Assembly (NCBI RefSeq): GCF_006345805.1
Contig: NC_043012.1
Span: forward strand, 57,350,001 to 57,414,000
From: Octopus sinensis
Lineage: Eukaryota
Length of the DNA: 64,000 bases
Reading direction: 5' to 3'
Made by a program: the position numbers and the translations under genes. Each line of letters begins with the position of its first letter. The first letter of the stretch is position 1. Of the stretch, positions 6,519 to 61,403 are shown piece after piece. The notes under the pieces are model-generated. The model ran no database searches and had not been told where the DNA came from. It saw nothing but the letters and a program-made list of their open reading frames with translations.

Positions 6519-6769
6519 AACTATCTGATTTCCAAGAAGAACAAAAACATATTCTTCACTTGGTGTAGACCAATTTATTTCTTTTGTAACACATCCAAAA
6601 TCCCTTTTTGAAGTAAATTTGCAACACTTTATCCACTTTTACTCAATGTTCTAACTATAGCTTCTTGTTGTTGTTGTTGCTGTTGTTTAGCCACAGGTTA
6701 GCTGTGATCAAGCAGACCTATGATTAATGATATTCCAGCTGTAGTAGCAATCACATCTTTTCTTATTTC

Positions 6770-6994
6770 TTTACTGCCCACAAGGAGCTACACAAAGAGG
6801 GGACAAACAAGCACAGACAAACGGATTAAGTTGATTATATCGACCCCAGTGCGTAACTGGTATTTATTTAATCGACCCCGAAAGGATGAAAGGCAAAGTC
6901 GACCTCGGCGGAATTTGAACTCAGAACGTTGCGGCAGACAAAAAACCGCTAAGCATTTCACCCGGCAAGCTAACACTTCTGCCAGCTCGCCGCC
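6770..6994 (-). mobile_element. SINE family B
   Basis: Reverse complement of 13431-13661. Confidence 0.85.
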
Positions 6995-13430: not shown

Positions 13431-13661
13431 GGCGGCGAGCTGGCAGAAACGTTAGTGTGCCGGGCAAAATGCTTAGCAGTATATCGTCTGCCGTTATGTT
13501 CTGAGTTCAAATTCCGCTGAGGTCGACTTTGCCTTTCATTCTTTTGGGGTTGATAAACTAAGTACTAGTTACACACTGGGGTCGATGTAATCGACTCAAT
13601 CTCTTTGTCTGTCCTTGTTTGTCCTCTCTATGTTTAGCCCCTTGTGGGCAATAAAGAAATA
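13431..13661 (+). mobile_element. SINE family B
   Basis: ggcggcgagctggcagaaacgttag head, gagttcaaattcc B-box, core domain. Confidence 0.85.
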
Positions 13662-13855
13662 AGAGCAAGGGTGCTTATATGAGTTGGCACTTTTTGGTCA
13701 GTTATATAAGCCTGTATAGGCTTAAGGACCCAAGAGAGAGGGAGGAACCAACACAGGGGTTAACCCAGGTGGCACAGATTTTAACTAAATCACTGTTTGA
13801 ACCCCTCTAGAAATGTGTGTGTGTGTATATGTATATATATATATATATATATCTA

Positions 13856-20136: not shown

Positions 20137-20306
20137 AGGCTTAGGAGTGGCTGAGTTGTAAGTAGCTTGCTTACCAACCACATGGTTCTGGGTTCAATCC
20201 CACTGTGTGGCACCTTGGATAAGTGTCTTCTACTATAGCCTCGGGCCAACCAAAGCCTTGTGAGTGGATTTGGTAGACAGAAACTGAAAGAAGCCCGTCG
20301 TATATA

Positions 20307-20354
<48 letters not shown>

Positions 20355-20561
20355 TGTGTGTCTGTGTTTGTTCCCCCAACATCGCTTGACAACCGATGCT
20401 GATGTGTTTACGTCCCCGTAACTTAGTGGTTCGGCAAAAGAGACCGATAGAATAAGTACTAGGCTTACAAAGAACAAGTTCTGGGGTTGATTTGCTTGAC
20501 TAAAGGCAGTGCTCCAGCATAGCCAGAATCAAATGACTGAAACAAGTAAAAGAGTAAAAGA
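20137..20561 (+). mobile_element. SINE family A, full length
   Basis: Matches other family A copies. Confidence 0.9.
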
Positions 20562-21200
20562 AGTATTGAGAAGTGTTAATTAATGAAAAAAGGATGTCCA
20601 CATTAAGAACTGCTAATTAGTAAAGGATACTAGCTCGTAAGAAACATGTACGTATGTGTGAATTTATTCATATATGATGACTGTCCACTTGTGCCAAAAT
20701 AAAACCATCACTGACCATTAACAACATTCAGGACTCAGACAAATTTATACTTTACACTTGTGGCTCTGCTGTTGACTAATGAGTCCAGCTCTTAATGAAC
20801 ATACAAGTCCATAGATATTGGCAGACCAAGCTTCTCCCATTCATTGCACTGGTGGTTTGTTTTCAAGTATCTCTGAAAAATGCATGTTTTATTGGAAATA
20901 TTCATTCCTTTTACTTGTTTCCTTCAAAGTTGGCGATGACAAGCAAAGCTTTCCCAATTGATCTCTCATATTTCACATGCTTTATACAATCCTTAAATAC
21001 ATACATAGATATATATATATATATAATAAATATTAGGGAATAAATCCAAATTTACAGGGAAAAAATCAGATTTAGGATTAAATCCAATTTTATAGTAAAA
21101 TATTATATAATATTAATTAGAGACAAAACCACTATTTTGCAAAACAAACAAGGAAAGACTTAATCAATACATAAAATTTTAATAAAAAGTAAAAAAACCG

Positions 21201-21243
21201 CCACTACAAATGTTTCATGTCTTGATTGACAATCTTCAGGTGG
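21201..21243 (-). ncRNA. Type I hammerhead ribozyme (left arm)
   Basis: CCAC-CUGAAGA-uUGUC aaucaa GACAu-GAAAC auuu GUA^GUGG. Confidence 0.75.
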
Positions 21244-21318
21244 ATTTCCGATTTTCAAGTCAGTTTCAAATTATGAAATTTGAAATTATAATTTGAAACT
21301 GACTTGAAAATCGGAAAT

Positions 21319-21361
21319 CCACCTGAAGATTGTCGATCAAGACATGAAACAATTGTAGTGG
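21319..21361 (+). ncRNA. Type I hammerhead ribozyme (right arm)
   Basis: Stem I CCAC/GUGG, core CUGAAGA, stem II UGUC/GACA, GAAA, palindromic stem III ACAAUUGU, cleavage after GUA (21357). Confidence 0.8.
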
Positions 21362-21460
21362 CGTTTTTTTACTTTTTATTAAAATTTTATGTATTGATTA
21401 AGTCTTTCCTTGTTTGTTTTGCAAAATAGTGGTTTTGTCTCTAATTAATATTATATATAT

Positions 21461-21502
<42 letters not shown>

Positions 21503-31752: not shown

Positions 31753-31865
31753 CATGGCTACCAAATAATTGTCACATATTATATTTACAGATATATATCT
31801 ATATATGTATGTATATATATGTATACCTATGTATGTATATATATATATATAAAATATATATATAT

Positions 31866-32505
31866 ATACTACAAAATTAGAGAATGGAGAAACATACTTA
31901 AATCAATAAAACATCAACTATCCGATGATACCCAATCAATACTTTAATACACCATTACATATGAGTAAAGGCATTATACAAAATGAGATATACAGTAATA
32001 GTAAAAAGATAAAGAGATATAAGTAAAAAATTTCAAATATAATATGCAATTAAATCAAAACTGACAGCTGTTTCGGCAGTGAGGGCAGTCATACCTCATT
32101 TAACCTCTAAGCCATAAAGGCAGGTATAATGAGGCATTAACAAGGATGCCCCACGGCCTCTTCAGAGAATTAAATTAAATTTGTTATAATTGTGAAAATA
32201 TATATATAACCATACATATAAATATAAAAATATATAAAAATGTAAAATATAAAAAACTTATACATCATAATGCTACACCAATATATATAATACTCATTGG
32301 TACAATAAGGAAGGTAAACAGAACAAAATAAAACAAAATATATATCAGTGTATATATTAATATTAATAAGTACCGATATATACATATTTGGCTAATAGTT
32401 TTTTTTAAAAAACTAACACATAGGGAGATGAAAAATAATAATTAAAACCATGGTTCAGTTCATAAAATTCTAAAGCTATGAAAGTTAATAAAAATTACTA
32501 TTAAT

Positions 32506-32557
<52 letters not shown>

Positions 32558-34423
32558 GATACAGTTAAGTTTGCACCAAGTCCATCCTTTCAAGATCGAA
32601 ATAACTATGAGTTTAGAAATGCTGACCACTAGGTAAAGAAAATTTAGATTAATTCGATTGGCTATTGGTTTGAAATTTAAATCACAAAAGAAAATTATAC
32701 GGTTGGTTAGTCAAGGAACGCCAATATTCACACACGCATCTACAGATCAATCGCACATACACACATAGTTATATGTATATACATACACTTATACACATAC
32801 ATAATCACAAGCAACAACTAGCACATAGATAAACAAAAAGGGAAGCAACTATGCTACCATTTAGCCTTCAAAATTATAACTGTGCCTCAAATAACGAAAA
32901 AAGAACCACCCATGCATTTCATAAAATATTTAATTTAGATATAAATATATTTTTAAATATCAGTATGTTACTAAGTCAGATAATTATTTCATGGGTAACT
33001 TAAAATTTTAACACCGGTTTGTTGCATAGTAAACATACGGTTGTTAGATTTATCGTGAGTTTGTTATGATTCCAAGTACGCTAAATTATAAAATATAAAA
33101 TATATATTAATTTATATATTATAAATAAATCACTATTTACTTAATAAATTAATGCCATAATATACCAGTTTAGGCATTAAAAAATAGAAGGGGAAGTACT
33201 AATGTAAACGCTTATGAGAACATCACAGAAATTTTAAAAAATTTATATTATAAATACTTAAGATAAAATGTGATAAGATAAATAAGAAGGAATAAATACG
33301 AAGGAATAAATACGGTTATACACATATTATAAGTACAAACCAGTATATATGTATTCATATATTATTAAAATTAAATAAAAATAAATGATAGATATGTATG
33401 TATAAAACTACCCTAGTATAAGTAAATAAGTAAAAAATAAAATAGATAACAAATAGATGACTTGATATGTATGTAAACATCTACACTTAAATAGGCAAAT
33501 AAATAAATAATTAGAAGACTAAATGCAGAGAGATGATAACATTACATAAAATAAAATAAAAATAAATAAAGTGAATATATATGTTATATTGTTGAAAGTA
33601 AATATGTATGGAAGGAGTAATTTAAAGTACAGATCCAGAGGACTATAGATATAAACTAAATATATAAGGCTGGGTAATATTATAAAGCCAAATGTATGTA
33701 AATGAGAAAATGAAAAAAATGAAAAAGGTTTATTAGTAGTAGCATAAGATACAAATTAAGGTGAGTACAAAGAAAGACCAAATATACAATAAAAACCTTC
33801 CAAATAAAACATACAAAAAACCTATATTCTCAACCTAAACACACCAAACTCATAAAAGGCTCTCATATATTACATATTATACAATATCATTACATTATCT
33901 AGAGCTAGGTATCTAACAAGATATACATATATACTATGCAATATACTATGCAATATTAGAAAACTTCAAAAATCACATATTACAAGGCAAATACCAAAAT
34001 GAATATGTTATTTCGTGTCATATTGCATTTCACTTAAAAAACAAACAAAAACCCACATACAAAAAACAAGAAACAAATAATACTAGACACATCTATTATT
34101 ATTATACAAATGTAGCTATAAAAAATTATAAATTATAAATTTATAAGTTGTATACTTAAGAATTATAGAAGACCACAGGTATAGTTAGTTAAAGAAGGGA
34201 GTTAAAAAATTAATAATAGTGAAGTGCTAAGTTCTATTTGAATCTAGAAATGGTGAACGGTAGCCTATGAATGCAAGAAAGGTTTTTTCATTAATGTTGT
34301 TAATAATTGCCGACCCGCTTTAATAATGAAAAAAATTTCATTAATACATAGAGAGCATTTTTTATTTTTCCATTATACACAGGTGCTGAAGTTAGTATTT
34401 CCAGTTTAACTAAAATCTAAGTT
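31866..34423 (-). repeat. Left arm of inverted repeat (ORF end plus ~2.4-kb 3' UTR/pLTR)
   Basis: Reverse complement of 36294-38867; differences mostly 1-nt indels and (AAT)n length. Confidence 0.95.
32059..32168 (-). ncRNA. Type I hammerhead with long stem II (left pLTR copy)
   Basis: Reverse complement of 38566-38675. Confidence 0.75.
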
Positions 34424-36293
34424 CTTACTTTTAAGTTCCCAAATGTATGCACTTAGCCCTGTAGAGTACATTCTATTTTTATTTCTAAAAGTATATCTGT
34501 GATAATTCAATCTTTGTTTTATGCTATTCATAGTTGCCCCGATATACACCCTACTACTCAATTGTGTATCTACAGTGTATTGGTAAACTACCTCCTTCCT
34601 GAGGCAATGATTACCAAATACACATTTATTTTTGTTTCTGAAATTACAAAGATTAACAGAATGAGGAAATCTAAGATTGGTCTCCACCCCTATACTACCA
34701 TTCACATTATAAGTGTTACAATTGTTATCATCATCCAAACCCAAAATCAACGAATGAGTTAATTTCACATTATCGGCTATATTCCTATCACTAGTACTAG
34801 TATTGGTAGTAGTAGTATGATCTATTACATTTATATTATCTCTGATAGGTACGGTGCACTCATTATTAGTAAGGGGGTTGTTCACATTCGTTCCAAGAAA
34901 GTTTCTGTTCCTATATTATTAAAGAGGGGCAAATTTCCCTGGTCTAAATTCAATTTCTATCCTTATAGAAGTGATCCAGTTTCCTGTTATTAAAAGAGGA
35001 GATAATGGTGGCTAGATTATGAGTAATGCTATATCCCACTCTAACAGTACTGTTGTTAATTAAAGGACTAAATTTATTCTTATCCTTACAAAATGCCTAA
35101 ATATAACATTATGCAAAGCTCTCACTATGTTTGTTTTAATCTGCATTGCATATGGGATAATCAACCATAGTGTATCCTTATCAGAATTAGGATTGCCTAT
35201 AGAATTATTGTTATTTGTAAAAATCCTATTCCTAGACCAACCCATAGGATTACTATTCTTACCACTGTCATTGTTATATCTATCATATCAATATTCCCAT
35301 GGTTATTGCGCAAGTAAACTTTACCATTATCATGTCTACCATAAGTTTTAATTTGTATATTATTATTAATATTACTACTATTACCCGTATGCTCAGATCT
35401 ATTTGAGCTACCGTTCACCTTCCGAGGTTAACATCACTTCTACATTTATTATAGGTGTTATCATATATTCTATTTTACTATTCTTATGTATATTGTTGCT
35501 ATCCTAAATCTGGTGTTGTTCCTGATAGTTCTACCTCCATTAGGAGGGTTCCCCTTAGGTATAAACCATATCTTACTTTTGTATCCTGCCTGAAGCAATG
35601 CTGCATTGTATCTATCACAATGCTTGTTAAAAATTTCCTCGTTAGAGGATAAACTAGAAATTCTGACTAATGCTACGCACTAGTGCATTTTTAATTTGAG
35701 GGGGGTTTGATTACTTGAACGGTTAATATATTAGGTTAATTAGGTTTAATATAGGGTTCATGTAAACCATTAGTAATGTTACAATTAACATCTAAATAAT
35801 TAGCAGAATAATTTTCACTTTCAATGATAATGGATAGGCCGAAACTTTTAAAAAATTTATTTATTCTTTTTTTCAGAAGATCTAATCTCCTATTTGATGT
35901 ATTCTTAACACAAAATAAGGCGTCATCCCTGTATAATCCACCTTTTAATTCAGGGAATTCCCTACTAAAGTTATCTAATAGATACATCCCAACTAGATCA
36001 GTCACCTCCGCCGAGTCCGGCGATCCCATTGTGATATCGAACAAGTTGGGTGTGTCCTTTCTAGCCAAAGTTTATTACAAACTCTATTAAAGTTTTCCTG
36101 GCTGTTAGTATAACCTTAATCTCCCCCATACTTAATTAGTGGTATTTTCTAGCAAAAATTAAGGACTTATTTAATATAATAGGGTTAATGGAAGTGTAAT
36201 AATTCTGTATATCAAATGGATAAATTTATTTCTATTATAGCTAAAGTTGTTACTGTCACAGACCTTAATGGCAGAAAACCAATCCAAAGCACC
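34234..36293 (-). pseudogene. PLE RT-thumb-GIY-YIG ORF, frameshifted and 5'-truncated
   Basis: LDWF..I, FDIQNYYTSI, RKTL, FDITMGSPDSAEVTDLVGMYLL, GLYRDD, NYLDV, YINRSSN.PP, CNFRNKNKCVFGNHCL, VVYQ..VYIGAT..KQRLNYH, STGLSAYIWELK, CSLCINE, CIH. Confidence 0.9.
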
Positions 36294-38157
36294 AACTTAG
36301 ATTTTAGATTAAACTGGAAAAATACTAACTTCAGCACCTGTGTATAATGGAAAAAATAAAAAATGCTCTCTATGTATTAATGAAATTTTTTTCATTATTA
36401 AAGCGGGTCGGCAAATTATAAAAACATTAATGAAAAAACTTCTTTTGCATTCATAGGCTACCGTTCACCTTTCTAGATTCAAATAGAACTTAGCACTTCC
36501 ACTATTATTAATTTTTTAACTCCCTTCTTTAACTAACTATACCTGTGGTCTTCTATAATTCTTAAGTATACAACTTATAAATTTATAATTTTATAATTTT
36601 TATAGCTACATTTGTATAATAATAATAGATGTGTCTAGTATTATTTGTTTCTTGTTTTTGTATGTGGGTTTTTGTTTGTTTTTTAAGTGAAATGCAATAT
36701 GACACGAAATAACATATTCATTTTGGTATTTGCCTTGTAATATGTGATTTTGAAAGTTTTCTAATATTGCATAGTATATTGCATAGTATATACGTATATC
36801 TTGGTTAGATACCTAGCTCTAGATAATGTAATGATATTGTATAATATGTAATATATGAGAGCCTTTATGAGTTTGGTGTGTTGTTGTGGTTTAGGTGAGA
36901 ATATAGGTTTTTTGTATGTGTTTATTTGGAAGGTTTTATTGTATATTTGGTCTTTCTTTGTACTCACCTTAATTTGTATCTTATGCTACTTACTAATAAA
37001 CCTTTTCATTTTTTCATTTTCTCATTTACATACATTTGGCTTTATAAATATTACCAGCCTTATATATTTAGTTTATATCTATAGTCCTCTGGATCTGTAC
37101 TTTAAATTATCCTTCCATACATATTTACTTTCAACAATATAAACAATATATTCACTTTATTTATTTTTTATTTTATTTTATTGTAATGTTATCAATCTCT
37201 GCATTTAGTCTTCTAATTATTATTTATTTGCCTATTTAAGTGTAGATGTTACATACATATCAAGTCATCTAATTTGTTATCTATTTATTTTTTACTTATT
37301 TACTATACTAGGGTAGTTTTATACATACATATCTATCATTTATTTTTATTTAATTTTAATAATATATGAATACATATATACTGGTTGGTACTTATAATAT
37401 GTGTATAACCGTATTTATTCTTCGTATTTATTCCTTCTTATTTATCTTATCACATTTTATCTTAAGTATTATAATATAAATTTTTTTAAAATTTCTGTGA
37501 TGTTCTCATAAGCGTTTACATTAGTACTTCCCCTTCTATTTTTTAATGCCTAAACTGGTATATTATGGCATTAAATTTATTAAGTAAATAAGTGATTTAT
37601 TTATAATATAAATTAATATATATTTTATATTTTATAATTTAGCGTACTTGGAATCATAACAAACTCACGATAAATCTAACAACCGTATGTTTACTATGCA
37701 ACAAACCGGTGTTATAAATTTTAAGTTACCATGAAATAATTATCTGACTTAGTAACATACTGATATTTAAAATATATTTATATCTAAATTAAATATTTTA
37801 TGAAATGCATGGGTGGTTCTTTTTCGTTATTTGAGGCACATTATAATTTTGAAGGACTAAATGGTAGCATAGTTGCTTCCCTTTTTGTTTATCTATGTGC
37901 TAGTTGTTGCTTGTGATTATGTATGTGTATAAGTGTATGTATATACATATAACTATGTGTGTATGTGCGATTGATCTGTAGATGCGTGTGTGAATATTGG
38001 CGTTCCTTGACTAACCAACCGTATAATTTTCTTTTGTGATTTAAATTTCAAACCAATAGCCAATCGAATTAATCTAAATTTTCTTTACCTAGTGGTCAGC
38101 ATTTCTAAACTCATAGTTATTCGATCTTGAAAGGATGGACTTGGTGCAAACTTAACT

Positions 38158-38211
<54 letters not shown>

Positions 38212-39040
38212 TATTATTATTATTAATATAATAGTAATTTTTATTAACTTTCATAGCTTTAGAATTTTATGAACTGAACCATGGTTTTAATTATTATTTT
38301 TCATCTCCCTATGTTGTTAGTTTTTTAAAAAAAACTATTAGCCAAATATGTATAATATCGGTACTTATTAATATTAATATATACACTGATATATATTTTG
38401 TTTTATTTGTTCTGTTTACCTTCCTTTATTGTACCAATGAGTATTATATTATATAAGTGTAGCATTATGATGTATAAGTTTTTATATTTTACATTTTTAT
38501 ATTTTTATATTTATATGTATATGGTTATATAATATTTTTCACAATTATAACAAATTAATTTAATTCTCTGAAGAGGCCGTGGGGCATCCTTGTTAATGCC
38601 TCATTTATACCTGCCTTTATGGCGCTTAGAGGTTAAATGAGGTATGACTGCCCTCACTGCCGAAACAGCTGTCAGTTTTGATTAATTGCATATTATATTT
38701 GAAATTTTTTACTTATATCTCTTTATCTTTTACTATTACTGTATATCTCATTTGTATAATGCCTTTACTCATATGTAATGGTGTATTAAGTATTGATTGG
38801 GTATCATCGGATAGTTGATGTTTTCATTGATTTAAGTATGTTTCTCCATTCTCTAATTTTGTAGTATTAATTTACGGTAATATTATTACCTTTACCCATA
38901 TAATACAATAGATGAACTGATTGTTTGACAATTTTTAACATCTATGTATTAATCTTGTTGGGTACCTATCTGGCAGTATATTGGATATATATTATCCCAT
39001 GGTGGGTTGAATTTTCAACCCCTATCTCATTTTATAACCT
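36294..39040 (+). repeat. Right arm of inverted repeat (second 3' copy; ~170 bp longer, ends in (TA)n)
   Basis: Starts aacttagattttag..ttaaactggaaa at the RT truncation point; pairs with the left arm up to 38867. Confidence 0.95.
38566..38675 (+). ncRNA. Type I hammerhead with ~87-nt stem II (right pLTR copy)
   Basis: cu-CUGAAGA-GGCcGUGGGGCA...AUGCCUCAUUUA...UAAAUGAGGUAU..UGCCCUCACuGCC-GAAAC AGCU GUC^AG. Confidence 0.78.
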
Positions 39041-44109: not shown

Positions 44110-44322
44110 GACAAACACAGACACACAAACACACACGCATATATATACATATACATATATACGACGGGCTTCTTTCAGTTTCCGTCTACCATATCTACTC
44201 ACAAGGCTTTGATTGGGCCGAGGCTATAGTAGAAGACACTTGCCCAAGGTGCCATGCAGTGGGACTGAACCTGGGAACATGTGGTTGGTAAGCAAGCTAC
44301 TTACCACACAGCCACTCCTGCA
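44110..44322 (-). mobile_element. SINE family A (head half)
   Basis: Matches the family consensus. Confidence 0.8.
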
Positions 44323-57114: not shown

Positions 57115-57333
57115 TACTCTTTACTCTTTTACTTGTTTCAGTCATTTGACTGCGGCCATGCTGGAGCACCGCCTTTAGTCGAGCAAATCGACCCCAGGAC
57201 TTATTCTTTGTAAACCCAGTACTTATTCTATCGGTCTCTTTTGCCGAACCGCTAAGTGACAGGGATGTAAACACACCAGCATCAGTTGTCAAGCAATGCT
57301 CGGGGGACAAACACAGACACACAAACACACACA

Positions 57334-57388
<55 letters not shown>

Positions 57389-59683: not shown

Positions 59684-59742
<59 letters not shown>

Positions 59743-59760
59743 TATATGTATGTATATATA

Positions 59761-60100
59761 CACACATGCTCATACATAAACACACTTCTGTAGATGTATA
59801 ATCAATATCATAAGGCAATGTAAAGGTGATATCGTACAGAAGAAATGATGTATGACACACCATATAATGAGGATAATAGAAAATGTCATATCAAAGCAAC
59901 TTCCAAATAGGTTAACTGTGAGCTTTTGTGTTGCAAAAATTTGTATATATATATGTATATATATATATATATATACGCTGTAATGTATACATAATATGGA
60001 GACACTTGTTTTGCATATAAAAGCATCAGGATAAATATTTGTCCATATATATGTCTACATAGATATACATACATACATATTTATATCTATCTATCTATAT

Positions 60101-60148
<48 letters not shown>

Positions 60149-60530
60149 ATATTATATATATACATATATATAATGTGTATATATATATATATATACACAC
60201 ATGCTCATACATAAACACACTTCTGTAGATGTATAATCAATATCATAAGGCAATGTAAAGGTGATATCGTACAGAAGAAATGATGTATGACACACCATAT
60301 AATGAGGATAATAGAAAATGTCATATCAAAGCAACTTCCAAATAGGTTAACTGTGAGCTTTTGTGTTGCAAAAATTTGTATATATATATGTATATATATA
60401 TATATATATATACGCTGTAATGTATACATAATATGGAGACACTTGTTTTGCATATAAAAGCATCAGGATAAATATTTGTCCATATATATGTCTACATAGA
60501 TATACATACATACATATTTATATCTATATA
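59761..60530. repeat. Near-perfect tandem duplication (~330-bp unique unit, ~435-bp period) bounded by (TA)n
   Basis: cacacatgctcatacataaacacacttctgtagatg...tatttatatctat at 59761 and 60196. Confidence 0.9.
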
Positions 60531-61403
60531 TATATATATATATATACGTACATACATAAGAGTGTGTATATAGAATATATGCGTGTGTGTGTGTGTGTGT
60601 GAGCATGAGTGTTTGTGCTTGTGTATGTCGAACACGACAAATTCCGTTTGATCTAATCTGAGGCATTGAGGCGTAATACCACAAAGTGCTCAATACATGA
60701 ATTAACAATAAATTACGATATTTAGAACTGCGACATTAGTCCCCATGATAAATATGGAGTGATGTTAAGCAACTAAGAAAAAAAAAAATTTATTGCATGG
60801 AACATACGCATGAAAATACCAATTTATAATATATATGTCCGTACATGTATGTAAATATGTCCATACACACATATAGATATATATATGTTGTTCACGTCTT
60901 TGTTCATTTTTACAGCCGTTTTTCCATAGAAGCGTTGGTTACAAGTATCATCATTAGATTCGTTTAATGTCTCCACTTTTCAATGCTTGCATGTGTCAGA
61001 CAGAATTTGCTGTGGTAAATTTTTTTCTTGTTTGTGTTTGTTTTTTACAGCTGGATGCTCTTCCTGTCTGTAACCCTCAACTGTTCCGAAGTAAGTAGAT
61101 ACTTTCCTTTTGGCTAGACATGTTTGTTTGCACAGAAGACTGGAATTGAAGGACAATAGCGGCATGTTGGTGAAACATGTTTTACACCTATTACACAATA
61201 TCAAGACAAGGTGACAAATGTACACATACATACATACATACATACATATAAATATATATAATATATATATATAATATATATATTATATATATATATATAT
61301 ATATATGTATAAATGCACACACACACACACATATTAAATTAATAATCACACATATATAGTTATTTTGAGGGAGAAAGTCAAAACAGGACTTATATATATA
61401 TAT

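Follow-up and report, generated by a model that had tools for sequence, protein, structure and literature searches.

A hammerhead-bearing palindrome in the window, the 64,000-nt stretch of Octopus sinensis DNA analysed here, most likely (at a probability of roughly 75%) represents the 5' leader of a Hydra-clade Penelope-like element (PLE), copied twice without its intron in head-to-head arrangement. The enzyme of this element likely cut a (TA)n target and primed twice on spliced RNA, and each copy likely ended by run-off at the RNA 5' end. The retention of introns through an RNA intermediate is a standing puzzle of PLEs, and its significance is called unknown in the accessible text of PMC8557442. 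In the octopus family, spliced copies are short and bounded by the inferred start site whereas unspliced copies are long, which leads to a testable model of intron retention. The copies map this start site, both priming sites and the non-use of the ribozyme from DNA alone. Tails, inverted arms and hammerheads on opposite strands have been described for PLEs before; what appears to be new is the class of intron-less leader copies, of which a search of the openly accessible literature, main texts only, found no report.

Between positions 21091 and 21471, the window contains an inverted repeat with 95.6% identity over 385 nt (Table 1), and both arms fold into a single duplex (-261 kcal/mol). When both strands of the 64 kb were searched for a type I core whose stems I and II can pair, exactly two matches appeared. 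Their CUGAAGA cores, at 21323 (plus strand) and 21239 (minus strand), lie one in each arm and read outward from the centre, each with a CCAC/GUGG stem I, GAAAC and a GUA site. Alignment, fold and two-strand scan thus confirm the original prediction of a palindrome with two divergent hammerheads and (TA)n flanks. One arm had also been described as longer at its 3' end; this is the left arm, with about 70 extra nucleotides. The spacer, given as 13 nt, measures 10 nt, and judging from its sequence it is likely a repair insertion. No target-site duplication is readable within (TA)n.

Table 1. Features of the palindrome in the window; signed numbers (+) refer to the PLE leader.
Feature	Position	Strand	Basis
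(TA)n target, left	21009-21025		Sequence; TA runs also flank other copies
3' tail, ~70 nt, left arm only	21023-21090	-	Longer of the family's two fixed 3' ends (~+257)
Left arm, exon 2 of the PLE leader (+28 to +257)	21023-21252	-	98.7% over 230 nt to L061, which has the intron, starting immediately past its AG acceptor
Left-arm minimal type I hammerhead	21201-21243	-	Loop III AUUU; loop II one change off the common variant
Left arm, exon 1 (+3 to +27), no intron before exon 2	21253-21277	-	25/25 nt identical to L061 3281-3305
Spacer, 10 nt, head-to-head joint	21278-21287		10-nt gap between arms; similar to exon 1 sequence close by
Right arm, exon 1 (+6 to +27), no intron before exon 2	21288-21309	+	22/22 nt identical to L061 and L041 exon 1
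Right arm, exon 2, tail-less 3' end (~+176 to +190)	21310-21457	+	99.3% over 149 nt to L061 and L041
Right-arm minimal type I hammerhead	21319-21361	+	Family's commonest variant; predicted cut after 21357
(TA)n target, right	21448-21500		Sequence

The hammerheads of the window are minimal and of the dimer type, with a 4-bp stem II, a 2-bp stem III and a palindromic loop (loop III is AAUU, mutated in the left arm). CUGANGA, GAAA, a UH cut site, helices I and II and the short palindromic helix III are all present. The 10.1-11.1 pair is U.U in most arms and U-A or A-U in variants, in contrast to the usual G-C, which is conserved in the motifs described in the available part of PMC4209133. Thus, of the complete type I hammerhead predicted for each arm, the core and stem I stand, but the motif is only minimal, with U.U at 10.1-11.1 and two base pairs in stem III. 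In RNAfold, neither window monomer folds as a hammerhead (z 0.10 and 0.71), and in Rfam, hammerhead families are absent among the best 150 of 297 matches at the palindrome. A 17-mer from the 5' side of the hammerhead has 247 exact matches in the genome and its reversed control has none, so the motif is not due to chance. Core and stems are constant across variants, as expected for a core conserved among homologs, and variation is found in loop II and N7; the right-arm motif recurs unchanged in 30 of 159 arms. Opposed minimal hammerheads 100-700 bp apart, with low cleavage, have been reported from Schistosoma and read as truncated PLEs (PMC4209133, available part). The octopus palindrome resembles these pairs in its two opposite-strand minimal type I motifs, the short palindromic helix III and the link to truncated PLEs; the splicing status of the Schistosoma pairs is unreported in that part of the source, whereas the octopus arms are spliced. 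The window copy is probably inert, a by-product in which each hammerhead would be occluded by pairing with the other arm: by its predicted fold, a read-through transcript would form a hairpin and bury the hammerhead inside the duplex.

The arm is not single-copy, in line with the original prediction: 1131 candidates were found in the octopus genome, and scoring of 40 among them yielded 71 matches, with 96-99% identity in those of full length. Some matches are paired at distances of 0.5-7 kb, and retrieval of such loci revealed a 5.6-kb element with reverse transcriptase (RT) and GIY-YIG endonuclease. In three copies (L064, L065 and L066) a single ORF encodes the RT followed by a C-terminal GIY-YIG domain, with GAPDS..A..L, YRDD and VYIGST recognised by eye in these broken copies. 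Further motifs of the parent ORF are RIKWK (an RWK motif), SDKT (with DKT in place of DKG), CTCRDKSKC (a CxCx5C linker) and VYIG, with CYLC (CxxC) and CRH (CxH) near the end. No intact ORF was found among the long copies read, and Pfam gave no significant match to the parent RT or endonuclease. Tandem units are present at L065 and L131, and the flanks of family copies indicate insertion into (TA)n. Together with an inverted arm truncated at its 5' end and a one-sided tail, such partial tandems make up the insertion architecture of endonuclease-bearing (EN+) PLEs, and the family shows all three. On the evidence of its motifs and TA targeting, compared with section 11 of PMC8557442, the parent is a Hydra-clade PLE. 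With the EN+ elements of this clade, as far as the accessible text describes them, it shares RWK-like and DKT motifs, the CxCx5C linker, GIY-YIG, the hammerhead and (TA)n targeting, as well as the inverted 5'-truncated arm and the tail at one end. It differs in its unit length of about 5.6 kb, against generally <3 kb, and in its tail of about 70 nt, against 30-40 nt. The octopus family also has a leader intron of about 1 kb and a large intron-less leader class, the latter unmentioned in the accessible text of PMC8557442. A sister subfamily (L130, L132, L137, L146, L153 and L164) is about 82% alike upstream; its promoter and exon 1 segment is doubled, about 1230 nt apart, before one hammerhead, which gives two donors and one acceptor. 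L042, L043 and L044 contain one and the same single-arm insertion within shared flanks, and L129 is similar at the joint; segmental duplication is the likely cause.

Two sequence contexts occur upstream of the hammerhead. Long copies read TTTTAG/ATCGG, and the short copies, including that of the window, read TTGAAA/ATCGG. The 25-27 nt that precede the joint in short copies are found about 1 kb upstream in long copies, followed there by GTATGT. The long copies thus have an intron of 1019-1206 nt with the donor TTGAAA/GTATGT and the acceptor TTTTAG/ATCGG. At L061, for example, the exon 1 segment that matches the left arm is followed by GTATGT and a 1038-nt intron, and both window arms pass from an exon 1 identical to that of L061 into exon 2 with nothing between. 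In each window arm, exon 1 of the leader (27 nt in full) runs directly into the hammerhead exon of the PLE, the intron being absent. Such precise removal of a GT-AG intron that the source copies still carry is what characterises processed retrocopies. Exact searches of the genome returned 126 spliced junctions, 83 acceptors and 124 donors, the last including the sister subfamily (controls: 0, 1 and 1). A variant of exon 1 that is 4 nt shorter is likewise spliced in short copies, and L174 shows it with its own GT donor and AG acceptor. Of 159 hammerhead arms, 117 are spliced, 35 retain the intron and 7 were left unclassed; 14-15 loci that duplicated or overlapped others had been removed ahead of the counts, and the first 30 loci (L001-L030) had been picked by likeness to the tailed arm, which favours tailed arms. 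Contigs of four sequencing runs guessed to be RNA covered parts of L065, and no joint across the intron was among those listed.

More than 100 exactly spliced copies indicate that sense, spliced RNA is a template in this Hydra-clade family. An antisense template with self-priming has been proposed for PLEs (PMC3846280, available part), and the exact splicing on the sense strand argues against such a template here. The leader organisation has parallels in flies. For Penelope of Drosophila virilis, a start site, a 46-nt first exon and a leader intron have been described, and most transcripts are spliced (PMC2377424, accessible text); the octopus leader is similar in its inferred start, its short first exon (27 against 46 nt) and its leader intron. 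The 3' end of the fly Penelope intron abuts helix I (PMC4209133, available part), and the octopus intron likewise ends 7-9 nt from it. Intron retention in D. virilis Penelope was credited to selection for expression, and intron-less genomic copies are unmentioned in the accessible text of PMC2377424.

The spliced arms share a 5' end. In 115 of 117, the arm starts within -11 to +18 of the A in TTTC-ACTT (starts at -1 to -6 are partly alignment artefacts), and the other two start at -68 and -75. None of the 117 reaches the ORF. Intron-bearing copies, collected as 67 donor rows of which one was unrelated, behave differently: none of the 66 family members starts at +1, and all continue upstream, the shortest to -48. 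A genome search had been expected to return either fixed ends or variable truncations joined to PLE ORFs; the short copies do have a fixed 5' end, and the second part fails for the spliced arms in that none is joined to an ORF. The copy ends alone suggest ACTTC as the transcription start. Of the 17 arms that begin at this point, 11 have a G directly before it, where the parents have C, against an opposite-strand background of G before A in 13 of 114. It may hint at a copied cap, although in 10 of these 11 cases the opposite arm continues with a G too and several joints recur, so that the binomial p of 2.7e-7 overstates the case. Two spliced copies, L025 (1422-1763) and L087 (770-1011), extend some 70 nt further upstream and possibly reflect a second start site. 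A retroviral parallel exists in strong-stop DNA, a short cDNA of fixed length that arises by run-off at the RNA 5' end. Copy starts near the hammerhead cut (+76) were found in none of 34 inner arms, and the templates were thus uncleaved; the anchors used would miss unpaired arms starting at the cut.

At their 3' ends the arms fall into two types, and 70 of 92 insertions are head-to-head pairs. A tailed arm (~+257) is paired with a tail-less arm (~+176 to +190) in 65 of the 70 palindromes, and the other five have two like ends. The arms within an insertion diverge by 0.7% (23 pairs) compared with 3.1% between insertions, so both arms derive from one source, likely one RNA; gene conversion could also maintain this likeness. 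Toward the 5' end the tailed arm reaches further in 19 palindromes, the tail-less arm in 16, and both are level in 30, in a sample whose first 30 loci favour tailed arms. Microhomology of at least 2 nt occurs at 13 of 34 joints against 23% by chance, a weak excess, and 16 of 34 joints have extra bases. At L068 (842-4073), a locus that would fit priming on both leaders, a spliced tailed arm is joined to an unspliced tail-less arm of 2.8 kb, and the two share their stem II variant. At L013 (1028-1494) and L009 (1244-1418 and 1771-1946), inverted stretches of 175-190 nt of the insertion's own flank lie between the arms, as if synthesis had switched from element to target flank.

Several other origins of the palindrome deserve consideration. 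A single priming event on the same spliced template might have yielded a cDNA that folded back and was copied into the second arm. Such snap-back would account for the near-identity of arms within one insertion; exon 1 holds short palindromes, joints such as TTATGA/CTTCAT recur, and self-priming has been proposed for rotifer PLEs (PMC3846280, available part). It would, however, make the second arm a subset of the first, which is contradicted in 16 palindromes where the tail-less arm has 5' sequence missing from the tailed arm and the tailed arm has the tail. It also conflicts with the combination of spliced and unspliced arms at L068. This origin is therefore improbable, and the presence of one tail per palindrome, together with the finding that either arm can be longer, favours two priming events over snap-back. 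A MITE, or a regulatory hairpin selected as a substrate for small RNAs or editing and bearing hammerheads by accident, is far less probable still. The near-perfect 180-bp hairpin and matches to microRNA hairpins in Rfam point in that direction, but these scores are sub-threshold, far under the gathering thresholds, and a microRNA hairpin was rejected as a generic hairpin score. The outer ends are unequal and the centres variable, contrary to a MITE; the 98-100% identity to a PLE leader and the arm divergence of about 1%, which points to a recent insertion, also speak against such an element, and the intron loss already largely refutes it.

A further alternative is a self-propagating non-autonomous family, comparable to SINEs or retrozymes, that lost its intron once, carries an internal promoter and uses the PLE enzyme in trans. 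The fixed 5' end and high identity would agree with a master copy. In addition, transcription of fly Penelope is driven by an internal promoter and persists in an intron-less construct (PMC2377424, accessible text), and some variants have spliced members only: two sampled stem II variants, with 10 and 7 arms, and a third with 12 spliced and 0 unspliced members at exact match, all three of them common. Most stem II variants are nevertheless present in both the spliced and the unspliced class, and the spliced arms are scattered among unspliced ones. In a tree of 142 exon 2 segments (134 columns), the spliced label changes 23 times against a shuffled mean of 27.5, and three sets of identical rows hold both classes. 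Supported branches force at least six label changes on this tree, which has few supported forks and a short alignment, and in none of 200 bootstrap trees do the spliced copies form one clade apart from the autonomous elements. This interleaving implies many sources and not a single master. A single intron loss is also hard to reconcile with the exact splicing of a second exon 1 variant, and the central joints vary between copies. Tandem arrays of short copies are absent from 89 loci. A master-copy origin thus appears unlikely, although some onward copying from short copies is possible, and the sequence comparisons indicate that spliced short copies are repeated by-products of many source elements. 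The original prediction had offered a truncated PLE or a non-autonomous element. Of these, the PLE origin holds (a parent with RT, GIY-YIG and Hydra-clade motifs), but random truncation is at odds with the precise intron loss and the fixed 5' point, and a separate non-autonomous family with the recurrent origin from different source lineages. Non-LTR retrozymes are likewise short, non-coding, hammerhead-bearing PLE derivatives (10.64898/2026.07.22.740005, available part). They are head-to-tail tandems, an arrangement absent from the loci examined here, whereas the octopus short copies are head-to-head or single, with ends off the ribozyme cut.

Under the favoured reading, two primings on spliced RNA, the element's enzyme would cut (TA)n and start both reverse transcripts there. 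Each cDNA would run off at the RNA 5' end, giving the fixed end at TTTC-ACTT, and end-joining repair may then have joined the two cDNAs at their 3' ends. The two 3' ends of the family would represent internal priming sites, by analogy with an anole element studied in vitro. In this element, Poseidon PAc, the tail is defined by a pair of neighbouring internal priming sites, AT-rich DNA is cut and extended on both strands, and uncleaved RNA serves as template (PMC11167929, accessible text). The ends of the octopus family fit such priming sites, two-strand extension and an uncleaved template. The octopus leader differs from PAc in that it is non-coding, with the ORF about 50-60 nt past the tail, and introns, spliced copies and the formation of palindromes are not treated in the accessible text of the PAc study. 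In L1 twin priming, inversions likewise arise from two primers on the same RNA. Unlike in L1, both primings in the octopus family appear to occur at defined internal sites and the same segment is copied, which results in a palindrome.

The position of priming might also explain why long copies keep the intron. A tandem source would give an RNA with one leader at its 5' end and a second one past the ORF. Priming on the spliced 5' leader would yield only a copy of about 260 nt, while priming on the downstream leader of a read-through RNA would produce long copies in which the intron is kept. The broader proposal that follows, for and against which we see even odds, is that PLE introns are kept through the position of priming and not through an antisense or unspliced template. 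Only the cap-proximal leader would be spliced, priming there would end in dead strong-stop hairpins, and long copies would be primed at the downstream leader. A dimeric enzyme would prime both ends of a double-strand cut, at the tailed and the tail-less site, and would even copy the cap. The short copies would then be a genome-wide fossil record.

The window contains a second PLE family. A 7-kb head-to-head insertion at 31865-38867 has 2.6-kb arms with 96% identity and is Hydra-like by its endonuclease. It also carries a motif that resembles a hammerhead and in which stem II is very long (CUGAAGA at 38568), and its family has 563 exact matches in the genome. Descent of the palindrome from this element was considered and rejected; the two belong to separate related families, with 41% identity over 88 aa of the endonuclease. 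In the 7-kb family, two 3' ends lie 33 nt apart and either arm can be longer. Arms start 437-454 nt before the hammerhead in about six sampled insertions, perhaps at the family's own start site. Among 30 of the 563 matches, truncation is variable and no spliced class was found, so a spliced class is not universal. Other repeats in the window include SINE-like dispersed sequences of 200-260 nt that adjoin microsatellites (44115-44319 and six more), further SINE-like pairs at 20301-20558 with 57120-57377 and at 6761-6994 with 13431-13664, and a 435-nt unit duplicated in tandem with 97% identity at 59685-60546.
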